From assembly GCA_963677595.1 (NCBI GenBank), contig OY782041.1, positions 2,880,001 through 2,944,000 of the forward strand: a stretch of DNA of 64,000 nt, written 5' to 3'. The notes beneath the pieces are model-generated. The model saw only the letters and a program-made list of their open reading frames with translations. It was not told where the DNA came from and made no database searches. The stretch's first letter is position 1. Each line of letters begins with the position of its first letter. Position numbers and translations under genes: made by a program. Below, one piece after another: positions 47,039 through 55,143 of the stretch. Origin of the DNA: Spirochaetia bacterium (GTDB lineage Bacteria; Spirochaetota; Spirochaetia; CAKZLE01).

Positions 47039-48139
47039 CTAGGCCTTGGCGGGGGTCGATCCCCGGTAGGCGATCTTCCCGTTGATATAGGTCCGCTGGA
47101 AGATATCATCCCTGGCCTGGAGGCGTTCACTCAGCCGTTTCAGGGCGAGTCCGACGAGTTTCGCATAGTGGTAGTCGATGCTGGAGAGGGTCGGGAAGGT
47201 CAGGTCGCAAACGGAGGTGTTCCTGCTGCCGAGGACCATGACCTCTTCAGGGCACCGGATACCTGCACGCTGCAGTTCGTTGAGTGCCGCGACTGCCATG
47301 TTGTCGTTTGCGCAGATGATGATGTCCGTGGTATTCCCGGCTGCGAGCCAGGAAGCCACAGCTTCCTGGTAGCACTCCATCGTCCACGCCGTCGCCTCGA
47401 TCCTGTCCAGCGCGATCTCATTCCCGGCCTGCTGGACTGCCAGTTCCACTCCCTGCCAGCGCTTGCTGGCAGCATCGAAGGGCTTCGGGTTGTCCATATA
47501 GGTCAGGCGGCGGCAGCCCCTCTCGATCAGGCTGTTCGTCTCGAGGAAGTAGGTCCTCAGATAATCGATCCCAACGACATCGACTGCATCATCGAGGGCT
47601 GCAGGCAGCAGTGCCACGACCGGTATATGGTGGTCCTGTGCCATGCGGATCAGTTCGGGGTCGATGAGGTTGACGATGATGAGCCCGTCGATCTTCCCGA
47701 GCATCTCCTCATACTGGGTCCTGCTCTGGGGATCGTGGTAGCTCACATACCGTGAGACGGGATGCCAGCCGTAATCATCGGCCTGGTCATGGACGGAGGT
47801 GAGGATGTTCCCGAACAGCGTATGCAGCTGTTCCTTCGGTGTCGTCCCCTCACCGTTGTCGATCACGACGCCGATCAGGCCGTACGACGGGGTCTTCACC
47901 TCCTGGTTCTCGATGACGAAGGCTCCCTTGCTCGGCAGGATCTCTACGAGTCCCTTCCCCTGGAGGATCAGGATCGCCCCCTTGCCGGTCTCGTGGCTCA
48001 CCTCGTACATTCTGCCGAGATCCCGCATCGAGGGGAGGCGGTCCCCGACCTTCAGTTCCCCTGACAGGATCTGGTTCTCGAGATCCTCCGCGATCTGTTC
48101 CTGGAGCGTCATTCTGGGTTTCTTCTCAAGATCGTTCAT
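47039..48139 (-). CDS. GntR HTH / LacI-type ligand-binding regulator
   Basis: [22 protein letters not shown]-terminal CANDNMA, PTLSSI. Confidence 0.88.
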
Positions 48140-48150
48140 ATGGTTTCCTT

Positions 48151-48164
48151 ACGTAAGCTTACAA
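48151..48164. promoter_or_regulatory. Candidate operator ACGTAAGCTTACAA upstream of the regulator
   Basis: Palindromic core GTAAGCTTAC; exact reverse complement at 51567-51580. Confidence 0.65.
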
Positions 48165-48227
48165 TCATTCTACCGTAATCGAGCCATTAGTCAATCAGGA
48201 ATCGACAGAAGTGACGGGAGTTACACA

Positions 48228-49238
48228 TCAGCCCTTGACCGCCCCGAAGGCAAGGCCCTTCACCAGGTACTTCTGGAAGAAGATGATGACGATGATGATC
48301 GGGATCGTGATCGATACCGAGGCCGCTGCGGCGATCGCCCGGTACGCCGCATCCTCACCGCTGGTATACGAAGCGATGGCAACCGGCAGTGTCCAGTTGG
48401 CCTGGGTCAGGAGCTTCGGCATGAGGAACTCGTTGTAGGCAAGCAGCAGGGTGAATAGGCTGGTAGTGATGATCCCCGGCCAGGCGATGGGGATGATGAC
48501 CCGGAAGAAGGATTCGAGCCGTCCCGCCCCGTCGATCATGGCTGCCTCCTCGATCTCCTTCGGTATATCCATGAAGAAGGATCTCAGCATCCAGATGGTG
48601 AACGGCTGGTTGATCGCGACCATGACGATGATCAGGAGGAATCGGGTGTCATAGAGGTGGGTCATCTGCCCGAGGTAGTAGTAGGGAAGGCTGAAAGCCA
48701 TCCTCGGCAGTGCGCGGAACCCGAGGGCGGCGATCAGGATGACAACGCCCCAGATCTTGCTGTAGCGCGCCAGTGCGTAGCCGCCGATACAGCCGATGGT
48801 GATCGATACGACCAGGGTTCCTACCGTGACGATGAGCGAGTTGAGGAAGTAGTTGTAGAATTTCGACATGCTTGCGAACCGGGGCAGGAGCAGCAGGACC
48901 AGGAGGATGGCAGCTGCTGCGATCATATTGGTCTTCGGCTTTGAGAGCCACTCATATTTCACGGAGAGGACGGCGAAGATGACGATGAGTGCCATGATCA
49001 CCAGGATCGCTATGGCATAGGGGAGGAACTCGGACCCTTCCATATAGAGCCAGAGTTTCGAGTAGTTGCCCATGGTGGGCTTGAAGCCCCACAGCTTCGG
49101 TCTCGGGTTGTTAGCCTCCACAGGGAACTTGATCGAGGTGAGCAGGCTCCAGACGAAGGGCATCACGCTGTAGACGACCAGCAGCATCAGGGCCAGGTAT
49201 ATCAGGATCCTTCCGATAGGGTTCTTCACTTTTTCCAT
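48228..49238 (-). CDS. Carbohydrate ABC permease (MalG-like)
   Basis: FFMDIPKEIEEAAMIDGA, QKYLVKGLAFGAVKG. Confidence 0.92.
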   Translation of the reverse strand: MEKVKNPIGRILIYLALMLLVVYSVMPFVWSLLTSIKFPVEANNPRPKLWGFKPTMGNYSKLWLYMEGSEFLPYAIAILVIMALIVIFAVLSVKYEWLSKPKTNMIAAAAILLVLLLLPRFASMSKFYNYFLNSLIVTVGTLVVSITIGCIGGYALARYSKIWGVVILIAALGFRALPRMAFSLPYYYLGQMTHLYDTRFLLIIVMVAINQPFTIWMLRSFFMDIPKEIEEAAMIDGAGRLESFFRVIIPIAWPGIITTSLFTLLLAYNEFLMPKLLTQANWTLPVAIASYTSGEDAAYRAIAAAASVSITIPIIIVIIFFQKYLVKGLAFGAVKG

Positions 49239-52962: not shown

Positions 52963-53012
52963 GATGTGCCGGCTTTTGCCGTAGAGATACCAAAACATAG
53001 CAGGAAGATCGT

Positions 53013-53594
53013 ATGGATAATGAAACAAGAGACAAACGGAAGGAATGGGAAGCGTTCGTGAATACCTGTGAGTTCAGGGATACCGATGAGGTAGCAGAAT
53101 ACTTCGAGAAATACACCCAGCTCATACATGACTACAAGATGATCGGGCGGATCTATGACTGTTATGACGATGATATCGTCATGAACCGTTCGAGCGGGGT
53201 CAAGATACAGGGGCTGACGAACATCTTCGGCCGCTCGATGCAGCTGCTGACGACAGTCCCCGACCTGCAGTATGAGTTCCTCGACATCTTCGCTGAGGGG
53301 AATCCCGAGGACGGGTACTCCTTCGCGCAGCTGACAGTGAACCACGGGACCTTCAGCGGGTATTCCCGGGCAGGGGAGCCGTCAGGAAGGAACTATGACG
53401 ATCCGTTCCCGAAGTACGGGATCTGCGAATGCTTCGTGGAGAAGGTCGACGGCAGGTGGATGATCACCAGAGAGTGGGTAGGCGATTCTGAGTTCTACGA
53501 TGACTACCTGCTGGGGATCACCGACACGCTCGACGGGTCGAGGGTTGACACGGAATTGAAAGAAACGGGAGAAGAGGAGGCAGTCGATGCGTGA
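53013..53594 (+). CDS. Single-domain SnoaL-like protein
   Basis: KMIGRIYDCY, VPDL, GTFSG..GEPSG, W.IT.EW. Confidence 0.65.
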   Translation: MDNETRDKRKEWEAFVNTCEFRDTDEVAEYFEKYTQLIHDYKMIGRIYDCYDDDIVMNRSSGVKIQGLTNIFGRSMQLLTTVPDLQYEFLDIFAEGNPEDGYSFAQLTVNHGTFSGYSRAGEPSGRNYDDPFPKYGICECFVEKVDGRWMITREWVGDSEFYDDYLLGITDTLDGSRVDTELKETGEEEAVDA

Positions 53595-54090
53595 GAACCC
53601 CATAGACAGGATACTCCAGGTCTCGAGGCGGCTTGATGACCTTGAGATCAAGACAGCTAACGATGTGAAAGAGTATATCAGCCTGGTGACCGAGCTGATC
53701 TATGACCAAAAGATGATCGGGAAGGTCTATGACTATTATGCCGATGATGCAGACGTGGTACTCCAGAGCAGGATCAACCTGAAAGGGCCCGATGAGGTCT
53801 CCTATGACATCATGCAGTTCTGCACGGCATTCCCCGACCTGCGGGCTGAGGTGAGGAACATCATCGTGCAGCAGGATGAAAAGGGGTTCAAGGCCTTCAG
53901 GCGGGTAAACTTCTCCGGTACCAATACCGGGACAAGCATCTACGGGCCCCCTACGGGCAAGAGCCTGGGGGACGAGTGTCTCTGCATGAGTTACATGAAA
54001 CTCAGGGAGGTTGATGGGTCATGGAAGATCTCGCAGGAGATCACCAACAACAGCGAACGGCAGATACGGCAGACGCTGACGGCTGAATGA
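53587..54090 (+). CDS. Single-domain SnoaL-like ester cyclase
   Basis: KMIGKVYDYY, AFPDL, GTNTG..YGPPTGK, WKISQE. Confidence 0.75.
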   Translation: MRENPIDRILQVSRRLDDLEIKTANDVKEYISLVTELIYDQKMIGKVYDYYADDADVVLQSRINLKGPDEVSYDIMQFCTAFPDLRAEVRNIIVQQDEKGFKAFRRVNFSGTNTGTSIYGPPTGKSLGDECLCMSYMKLREVDGSWKISQEITNNSERQIRQTLTAE

Positions 54091-54105
54091 TACGATTGGC
54101 AGGAG

Positions 54106-55143
54106 ATGATCATGAATAGTGTACACGACAGGAATAAGAGACTCATTGCACGATATCGGGCAGCCTTGTATGACTTGGAACCAACGAAGCTCCTCACCGT
54201 CATGAAGGAGGTCTTCTCTGAGGACTGTATTTTCCATATGTGCTCACCCTTCGGGGATATCATCGGGCCTGAGGCGTATTATGAGGCGGTATTCTGTCCG
54301 ATGCTCACCGCCATGCCCGACCTCGAGCGGCGTGACTACATCGACGTGGCCGGGGACTCGAAGGGGGTCGACTGGGTTGGCAGCTGCGGCTACTGGATCG
54401 GTGTCTTCGAGCAGCCCTGGCTTGATATACCGCCGACCTGCCACCCGATCGCGATGCGGTACCATGAGTTCTTCAAGGTCGAATCCGGGAAGGTCGTGGA
54501 GTTCCAGGGGATCTGGGACATGGTCCACTTCATGATGCAGGCGGATGCATGGCCTCTTGCTCCCAGTCTTGGTATGGACTGGGTCGGCCCGGCGCCGGCT
54601 CTACAGAACGGCCTGCAAGCCGGGGATCGCGATGAAGCCATGGCTAAGGCTTCCTGCGACCTCATCCTCGACATGCTGACCCATATGAACCGGTATCCCA
54701 GCCAGGGGACCCGTGATGTCATGGAGATGGAGCGGTTCTGGCACCCGAAGATGACCTGGTACGGTCCGGCAGGGATCGGGACTAACCGGAGGATCAGCGG
54801 GTTCACCAACTGGCATTCGATCCCCTTCCTTAAGGCCCTGCCTGACCGGGGGGATACGACCGGGCTCGATGACCATTTCTTCGGGGACGGCCATTACGCT
54901 GCCTGTACCGGCTGGCCGAACATGCAGATGACCATCAGCGGTGACGGCTGGATGGGCCTGCCCCCTGTGGGGAAGAAGCTCACGATGAAGAGTTTGGATT
55001 TCTGGCGGGAGGAGAAGGGCCTGATCCGGGAGAACTGGGTCTTAATAGACCTGCTGGACATCTACGACCAGCTGGGAGTGGATGTCTTCTCGAGGATGCG
55101 TGAGCGTACGGTCGCACGACAGCAGGTCAGGCCGGCACTGTAA
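54106..55143 (+). CDS. Two-domain SnoaL/NTF2-like ester cyclase family protein
   Basis: MPDLERR, WLDIPPT, WYGPAGIG, GWPNM, ENWVLIDL; paralog of 51943-52962. Confidence 0.8.
   Translation: MIMNSVHDRNKRLIARYRAALYDLEPTKLLTVMKEVFSEDCIFHMCSPFGDIIGPEAYYEAVFCPMLTAMPDLERRDYIDVAGDSKGVDWVGSCGYWIGVFEQPWLDIPPTCHPIAMRYHEFFKVESGKVVEFQGIWDMVHFMMQADAWPLAPSLGMDWVGPAPALQNGLQAGDRDEAMAKASCDLILDMLTHMNRYPSQGTRDVMEMERFWHPKMTWYGPAGIGTNRRISGFTNWHSIPFLKALPDRGDTTGLDDHFFGDGHYAACTGWPNMQMTISGDGWMGLPPVGKKLTMKSLDFWREEKGLIRENWVLIDLLDIYDQLGVDVFSRMRERTVARQQVRPAL

Follow-up and report, generated by a model that had tools for sequence, protein, structure and literature searches.

Tandem SnoaL-fold proteins of a spirochaete belong to a widespread catabolic system that may degrade mycosporine-like amino acids

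The FruT/FruI locus of Vibrio cholerae (VCA0666-VCA0673) has been described as a fructose uptake system in which the LacI-type regulator VCA0673 represses VCA0669 (PMC8324912). In the parts of that paper available to us, deletion of VCA0673 raises expression of sdaA 4.1-fold, of a sodium:solute symporter (SSS) gene 21-fold, of a major facilitator superfamily (MFS) gene 394-fold, of VCA0670 26-fold and of the SnoaL gene VCA0671 167-fold; these passages do not discuss the SnoaL gene. Here we analyse a locus encoding a VCA0671 orthologue in a 64,000-nucleotide stretch of a Spirochaetia bacterium genome (assembly GCA_963677595.1, contig OY782041.1, positions 2,880,001 to 2,944,000), hereafter the window. 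At 47039-55143 it encodes four SnoaL proteins (A, B, C and D), a solute-binding protein (SBP), two ABC permeases and a regulator. It represents a real, widespread, catabolic system that is undescribed in the literature searched, where, as the initial annotation had supposed, no characterised pathway matched it. On balance we consider it probable, by no means certain, that the locus serves to catabolise mycosporine-like amino acids (MAAs), with the SnoaL paralogues hydrolysing their amine substituents.

Sequence comparison places protein A in an uncharacterised family that is about 70% identical across phyla. It matched 5168 of 8000 scored candidates, and its best 119 non-self matches, from Spirochaetota, Bacillota, Fusobacteriota and Gammaproteobacteria, are 68-74% identical to it. 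No specific NCBIfam family exists for A, C or D, and a metagenome scan with D returned one short fragment. A and B are 31% identical and have the motifs WYGPAGIG, GWPN and ENWVxIDL in common; C and D are 32% identical (E 1e-21) and have LIxDxKMIGxxYDxY in common. Pfam SnoaL was matched by A in one stretch (E 3e-14), by B in two (4e-20), by D (1e-7) and weakly by C (0.0015), and an AlphaFold2 model of A (pLDDT 82, pTM 0.87) contains the NTF2 topology twice. Open reading frames (ORFs), motifs, Pfam and this model agree with the initial count of two double-domain and two single-domain proteins, six domains in all, and both Pfam matches and structural comparison assign them to the NTF2/SnoaL fold. 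Among solved structures the nearest were generic SnoaL folds, whose identity is about 20% or lower. D138 and D315 (B numbering) are invariant in 19 of 19 alignment rows and align to the W-x-x-x-D motif of 8YSB/IdmH, so that the acidic residue of SnoaL cyclases is present; we take it to be the catalytic Asp121 of SnoaL. Also conserved are WYGPxGIG, HQxP and N310, with His-Gln conserved in the C-terminal domain.

A scan of GTDB genomes with A confirmed at least 596 of 608 stretches, and 80 loci were retained with up to 10 kb on either side, many of them ended by contig ends. A transporter cluster is present in 58 of these loci (SSS in 41, MFS in 33, the SBP clade of the window in 9). The other recurring classes are LacI-type regulators of one cluster (37 loci), a paralogue of the distant "c4" group (31), serine dehydratase (13), short-chain dehydrogenase (SDR, 12), HpcH aldolase (12), cupin (11), HisD-like dehydrogenase (8), alpha/beta-hydrolase (8), the oxidoreductase AOR (5) and iron-dependent alcohol dehydrogenase with aldehyde dehydrogenase (ADH+ALDH, 4). 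Importers and catabolic genes thus recur, and neither polyketide synthase (PKS) nor other biosynthetic genes were among the recurring neighbours of the 80 loci or of four plasmid regions, which bears out the view that the system is catabolic rather than polyketide-biosynthetic. Two layouts can be distinguished. The minimal one consists of importer, MFS, A (with c4 in clostridia), a LacI regulator and often sdaA; the full one has several SnoaL genes with oxidation, ring and aldolase genes. Ring enzymes occur in 1 of 33 MFS loci versus 22 of 47 others (Fisher p ~1e-5, no kinship correction), which fits export of an unused product. The HisD-like gene shares no locus with ADH+ALDH or AOR, which fits an interchange of enzymes for a single job, turning a primary alcohol into an acid; the HisD-like protein scores better with the diol dehydrogenase HpsN (E 4e-109) than with HisD (9e-81).

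MAAs serve algae, cyanobacteria, corals and fish as abundant UV screens rich in nitrogen. They are built on a cyclohexenimine or cyclohexenone ring with a methoxyl group and a tertiary alcohol bearing CH2OH; their biosynthesis is solved. They carry one or two amine substituents besides the methoxyl, commonly glycine plus serine or threonine. An MAA catabolic pathway would be expected to be tied to serine catabolism and to be regulated together with an importer, and both were found. In Vibrionaceae, 12 of 16 loci have serine dehydratase next to A, and an Oscillospiraceae locus has the unrelated two-subunit SdaAA/AB there, which counts in favour of serine release from MAAs. Methyl-transfer genes, which likewise count for these methoxylated compounds, occur in four forms: MtaA-like with a corrinoid (B12) protein (L019), URO-D-like (L076, L078), MetE-II-like (L064, L087 and two plasmids) and GcvT-like (Halobellus). 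The RraA-like protein matches the 4-carboxy-4-hydroxy-2-oxoadipate (CHA) aldolase 3NOJ weakly (E 1.5e-4). Clusters without a cupin can hold a creatininase-fold protein whose best score, below the cutoff, was to the diketo-cyclitol hydrolase IolN (E 7.5e-46). In the cupin, a candidate enediol/diketone-cleaving dioxygenase, HxH..E is invariant and the motif-2 His is replaced by Arg; matches to acireductone dioxygenase are weak (E 0.003-0.06), and a fold search with a low-confidence model gave generic cupins only.

In the pathway we propose, the importer would take up MAAs such as shinorine and porphyra-334, and the SnoaL enzymes would hydrolyse ring C-N bonds (vinylogous amidine or amide), freeing serine, threonine, glycine or other amines. 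A would act on the Ser/Thr imine to give mycosporine-glycine; in minimal, "harvest-only" modules this would leave the cell by way of the MFS, and SdaA would consume the freed serine. B, C+D and c4-clade paralogues would remove glycine or other substituents to yield 4-deoxygadusol; in clusters with ring genes, its ring CH2OH (the terminus of a 1,2-diol) could be oxidised to COOH by the HisD/HpsN-like enzyme, ADH+ALDH or AOR. In aerobes the cupin may cleave the methoxy-enol C=C of the oxidised ring to a methyl ester of CHA or a close analogue; the alpha/beta-hydrolase would then remove the ester, and an RraA or HpcH aldolase would split CHA into pyruvate and oxaloacetate. In anaerobes, corrinoid or MetE-like demethylation may be followed by opening of the diketone by the IolN-like hydrolase. 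Every recurring gene class would thereby have a use on the MAA scaffold; the paralogue assignments, the cupin chemistry and the role of the SDR are proposals. The initial annotation had the SnoaL set itself open or rearrange an imported cyclic solute: import-linked catabolism holds, and the neighbourhoods suggest that these proteins remove amines while other enzymes open the ring. The genome of the window has ring modules apart from it, at C1:906102-903632, at C1:2.469-2.473 Mb and in two IolN-like cassettes. The first (G000:C1:906102-903632) is a stand-alone operon of cupin, alpha/beta-hydrolase and HpcH aldolase equivalent to the ring module of full clusters. The cassettes (G000:C1:2212724-2221032 and 2745740-2755009) are duplicates with an IolN-like hydrolase, an Ldh2-type dehydrogenase, an SDR, a fucose-isomerase-like protein, HpcH and LacI; they lie near TRAP genes and are homologous to genes within the SnoaL clusters L076 and L078, both IolN-like proteins being 64% identical to that of L076.

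Published observations touch this system at several points. According to the portion of a review that we consulted, V. harveyi strips Ser/Thr from shinorine and porphyra-334. V. harveyi sequences are members of the 90% cluster to which the V. owensii A protein belongs, so that an A orthologue is present in the converting species, an agreement at species rather than strain level. The MFS ORF adjoining A in locus L040 has the FruI footprint 106 nt upstream; the FruI motif differs from that site by one extra A, and no match was obtained at 3 mismatches. The A protein of L040 is UniProt Q9KLS0, which gene order and the SnoaL label identify as probably VCA0671. Co-induction of the SnoaL genes with the transporter, as initially expected, finds its counterpart in the co-regulation of this V. 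cholerae A orthologue. In V. coralliilyticus exposed to coral mucus for 60 min, the consulted data of PMC8630044 list VIC_004340, 4341 and 4342 as raised by 2.0, 2.0 and 1.6 log2 and VIC_004345, 4346 and 4347 by 2.3, 3.1 and 1.3 log2 (padj < 0.01). Six of the eight structural genes of a SnoaL/HisD cluster, with VIC_ genes matched to it by Pfam label, size and order rather than by sequence, are therefore raised by 1.3-3.1 log2. In the minimal module, with genes matched in the same way, these data give +1.6 for the MFS (padj 0.029) and +1.1 for the 338-aa SnoaL protein A (padj 0.012). MAAs are not mentioned in the consulted passages of that paper. Coral mucus contains up to nine MAAs, and we regard this rise as modest support for MAA catabolism.

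Several observations weigh against MAAs. The V. harveyi phenotype, known to us through the review, is not tied to genes. In the coral mucus data (PMC8630044, as far as consulted), the hydrolase (+0.6) and HpcH aldolase (-0.5) were not raised at 60 min, the SSS of the A module was unchanged, and at 10 min the sole significant change among the eight structural genes of the ring cluster was a fall of HpcH; moreover, 23% of genes rose, counts were small (baseMean 9-35), and coral mucus also contains plentiful Ser/Thr glycoproteins. Among 119 annotated neighbour proteins, no gene of threonine or glycine catabolism recurs beside A. MAA catabolism gives no direct account of the sarcosine-oxidase-type genes (L066 and a V. 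pelagius plasmid), of the M19 dipeptidase pairs next to B, or of fructose transport by FruT, presented in the passages seen of PMC8324912 as a fructose/H+ symporter with a growth phenotype. Carriers from soil and gut exist (Bacillales, C. difficile, Dorea, Brachyspira, Citrobacter, Ensifer), phylogenetic independence does not hold for the locus counts, and contig ends truncate many loci.

Another cyclic marine solute, methylated and carrying a hydroxymethyl group (such as an N-heterocycle, an aminocyclitol or a member of an osmolyte family), is an alternative we consider unlikely though worth keeping in mind; the SnoaL proteins would then act as hydrolases or isomerases. The same neighbourhood logic of alcohol oxidation, methyl transfer, ring opening and aldol cleavage would apply to it, and sarcosine-oxidase-type neighbours suggest N-methyl groups; however, none of the candidates known to us also yields serine, fits the Vibrio conversion on record and calls for as many as six paralogues in one locus. 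Somewhat less probable still are sugar-amino-acid conjugates (mucus O-glycosyl-Ser/Thr or Amadori fructosyl-amino acids), split by ketosteroid isomerase-like enolisation and elimination. Their products, with the same low probability, would be the amino acid and a deoxy-osone catabolised by ALDH/AOR and HpcH. The sugar-type SBP, LacI regulators, fructose transport by FruT, SdaA linkage, rise in Ser/Thr-rich mucus and HpcH aldolases all accord with such conjugates, but the family is rare in Lachnospiraceae and has no match in E. coli genomes, and the methyltransferases, the HisD/HpsN-like enzyme, the cupin-hydrolase-RraA set and the IolN-like hydrolase would be left unaccounted for. Beside the clusters we also observed a heterotetrameric sarcosine oxidase with purU (L088:339-5581) and a monomeric sarcosine-oxidase-family gene (L066:685-1827).

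Going by the published names FruT and FruI, the substrate would be fructose or some other free sugar and the SnoaL proteins would be accessories. In the parts of PMC8324912 available, fruT deletion lowers the yield on fructose and fructose causes a fruT-dependent alkalinisation, yet fructose, fructose 1-phosphate and fructose 6-phosphate do not release the VCA0673 repressor; there is no kinase; SdaA, SSS and SnoaL belong to the regulon, and an MFS is present in 33 of 80 loci only, all of which makes a free sugar very improbable. Polyketide ester cyclases of biosynthesis, the automatic annotation, would explain the Pfam SnoaL matches and the "ester cyclase" names. With no PKS or biosynthetic gene recurring, importers and catabolic genes consistent throughout and 20% identity or less to solved cyclases, we give this function almost no credence and reject it, the loci not being polyketide clusters. 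Sulfonate catabolism (2,3-dihydroxypropane-1-sulfonate, DHPS) was rejected despite the HpsN-like gene because no sulfonate-lyase gene recurs among annotated neighbours. MAA catabolism thus remains the reading we prefer. In its widest form, it would supply the genetic basis of microbial MAA breakdown: a new family of tandem SnoaL-fold C-N hydrolases, with paralogues for different MAAs, in two layouts, one harvesting the amino acid and exporting the ring (Vibrio and amino-acid-fermenting clostridia), the other a full route to pyruvate and oxaloacetate (Roseobacters, Bacillales, Chloroflexota, haloarchaea and the window spirochaete), and MAAs would be what the V. cholerae "fructose" regulon really serves. 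We give this whole an even chance of being right.

A quick tree of 92 rows, built without 76 of the 84 A-clade rows and limited to rows of 280-520 aa, resolved an A clade, a B clade, several Chloroflexota and haloarchaeal paralogue clades and the distant c4 group. C+D and three naturally fused proteins (P0122-P0124) form their own clade on the c4 side, a placement that depends on long branches. Because the N-halves of the fused proteins are closest to C and their C-halves to D, C and D are probably one split double-domain enzyme, and the window would encode three enzyme units: A, B and the c4-side unit C+D. C/D pairs lie near A in Pseudalkalibacillus and Flavonifractor (L024, L073), and the trio of A, B and c4-side units is also found in Marinomonas, Ruegeria conchae, Paracoccus alcaliphilus, V. 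pelagius and Chloroflexota. Conservation does not extend to the array of four genes: in the relatives G001 and G003, A is divergent from SBP and permeases, no C/D lies beside it and B is placed in a separate operon with two M19 dipeptidases, and Vibrio loci have A alone of the four genes. The four-protein heteromer first suggested is thus not supported, and an obligate four-subunit complex was rejected. GTDB loci contain up to six SnoaL paralogues, and the genome of the window has three more of C/D type in a second cluster. That cluster (G000:C1:2465607-2473892) comprises an SBP, two permeases, a nitrilase-family hydrolase, a HisD/HpsN-like dehydrogenase, the three single-domain SnoaL genes and LacI; its substrates are perhaps amino-alcohol- or amide-bearing. 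Operons of a B-clade gene with two M19 membrane-dipeptidase paralogues were seen in related spirochaetes (L103:10873-15359, L108:8386-12865 and L070), those of L103 and L108 also with a GntR/LacI regulator. A plasmid of Halobellus limi (L090) carries five tandem SnoaL genes with MetE-II-like and GcvT-like methyl-transfer genes.

The transport genes of the window are those of a CUT1 importer, an SBP_bac_1 protein with two BPD_transp_1 permeases. No ABC ATPase gene is present in 47039-55143; MalK-like genes lie elsewhere in the genome, the best at C1:607926. The closest solved relative of the SBP is 5IAI (E 1.5e-20), and its predicted ligand is an MAA. The SBP clade adjoins A in 9 of 80 loci, 7 of these at 47-80% SBP identity to the window, and the MalG-like permease clade in 15. 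This ties the system to import, as initially claimed; the claim that the ABC importer is dedicated fails, as most loci have SSS or MFS in its place. The regulator has an orthologue at the same position in G001/L023 (one contig) and is likely a repressor of the locus.

The system is widespread and mostly marine. Using the A profile, with each count including the centre genome, we found it in 75 of 301 Vibrionaceae, 2 of 301 Lachnospiraceae, 17 of 301 genomes of the order containing Halioglobus (stricter cut-off), 4 of 6 of the window's order and 1 of 401 Cyanobacteria. Blastn against 5,426 E. coli genomes gave no match. Among 72,556 plasmid records there were 24 matches, and for 21 of these the name or source points to a marine or saline origin. 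The sole cyanobacterial match is an MFS and A pair in a metagenome-assembled genome of a halophile (L025:8543-11011), where ORF inspection found no mys genes; with 1 of 401 genomes and no mys genes beside A, a tailoring role in MAA biosynthesis finds no support.

All eight ORFs of the locus are present (Table 1), and the SnoaL genes are divergent from those that Pfam identifies as SBP, permeases and GntR/LacI-type regulator. As first noted, the ORFs of 47039-55143 include no PKS, glycoside hydrolase or kinase. The ATG of A is preceded by AAGGAGA and homologues begin there, TTG 51856 being an upstream extension of the ORF; the ATG of B was chosen by ribosome-binding-site spacing and homologue starts. 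A promoter/terminator scan of the divergent region found 8 sites versus 4.9+/-2.0 in shuffles, which is near chance.

Table 1. Features of the SnoaL locus, in window coordinates.
Feature	Position	Strand	Basis or remark
GntR helix-turn-helix + LacI-type sugar-binding regulator	47039..48139	-	Pfam GntR + Peripla_BP_3
ABC permease, MalG-like	48228..49238	-	BPD_transp_1
ABC permease, MalF-like	49238..50098	-	BPD_transp_1
CUT1-type solute-binding protein (SBP)	50199..51509	-	SBP_bac_1
Divergent promoter region, AT-rich, 33% GC	51510..51942	.	part adjoining SBP start kept in relatives
Protein A, double SnoaL domain, core clade, V. cholerae VCA0671 orthologue	51943..52962	+	Pfam SnoaL, homologue searches
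Protein C, single SnoaL domain	53013..53594	+	matches N-halves of fused P0122-P0124
Protein D, single SnoaL domain	53587..54090	+	8-nt overlap with C; C-half of fused proteins
Protein B, double SnoaL domain, second conserved clade	54112..55143 (likely start; ORF from 54106)	+	

Elsewhere in the window, 43161-44374 and 46310-47130 hold frameshifted or degraded ORFs, including pieces of an NAD-binding protein, and a DUF1801-like stretch near 43.8-44.1 kb duplicates an intact gene at 46310-46663. By sequence reading, a separate ABC locus for sugars occupies 36700-42923 and includes a URO-D-like gene, an ORF resembling rhamnose mutarotase and LacI, and mobile-element genes lie at 6044-11639, 21808-23544 and 58261-59661 (an ExeA-like ATPase with transposase, serine recombinases and two IS transposases).

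We found no published description of MAA-degradation genes or of this pathway in the literature searched, with subscription papers and bioRxiv supplements largely outside it; the consulted passages of PMC12904256 and PMC6165330 contain nothing on MAA catabolism. The novelty lies at the pathway and enzyme-family level, the importer-regulator-enzyme layout being ordinary. If MAAs are the substrates, genes could be named for a bacterial conversion reported in the 1990s, vinylogous amidine/amide hydrolysis would join the NTF2/SnoaL repertoire, and a published Vibrio regulon would be re-read; MAA turnover in the oceans and in animal guts would gain markers, and there would be enzymes to interconvert cosmetic MAAs or make deoxygadusol. 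Should the substrate be wrong, there would still stand a catabolic pathway conserved across phyla, with an enzyme family not yet characterised.

The polyketide cyclases SnoaL, AknH, IdmH and KstA15 (PF07366) are alike in fold (Z ~10-12, rmsd 2.3-2.9 across one domain) and in the C-terminal W-x-x-x-D motif, whereas the window proteins, at the low identity given above, have tandem domains, extra conserved residues and no biosynthetic context. The epoxide hydrolases Lsd19 and MonBI/BII, top Foldseek matches of the A model, also have two NTF2-like domains in one chain or pair, but belong to polyether biosynthesis and appear to differ in domain packing (11-12% identity; whole-chain rmsd ~16-17, a poor superposition, with the predicted model of A); no phmmer or HMM match links A-type proteins to Lsd19-type enzymes. 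Ketosteroid isomerase and limonene epoxide hydrolase are structure matches with cofactor-free acid/base chemistry in catabolism, as BaiE, LinA and AtzH are further catabolic enzymes of the NTF2 fold; the catabolic NTF2 enzymes differ in substrate, in being single-domain and in lacking sequence-level membership. The protocatechuate 4,5-cleavage/gallate lower pathway (LigK/GalC) and HpsN-type DHPS oxidation resemble the full clusters in the RraA-type aldolase, the HpsN-type dehydrogenase and the predicted convergence on CHA; the full clusters would enter via SnoaL proteins, and no aromatic dioxygenase or sulfonate gene recurs among their annotated neighbours. Nearest in gene content, from what we could consult of PMC8324912, the V. 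cholerae FruT/FruI locus encodes VCA0671, ~68% identical to A, with MFS, SSS, sdaA and LacI; it has been read as fructose uptake, whereas the window combines an ABC importer with more SnoaL paralogues.

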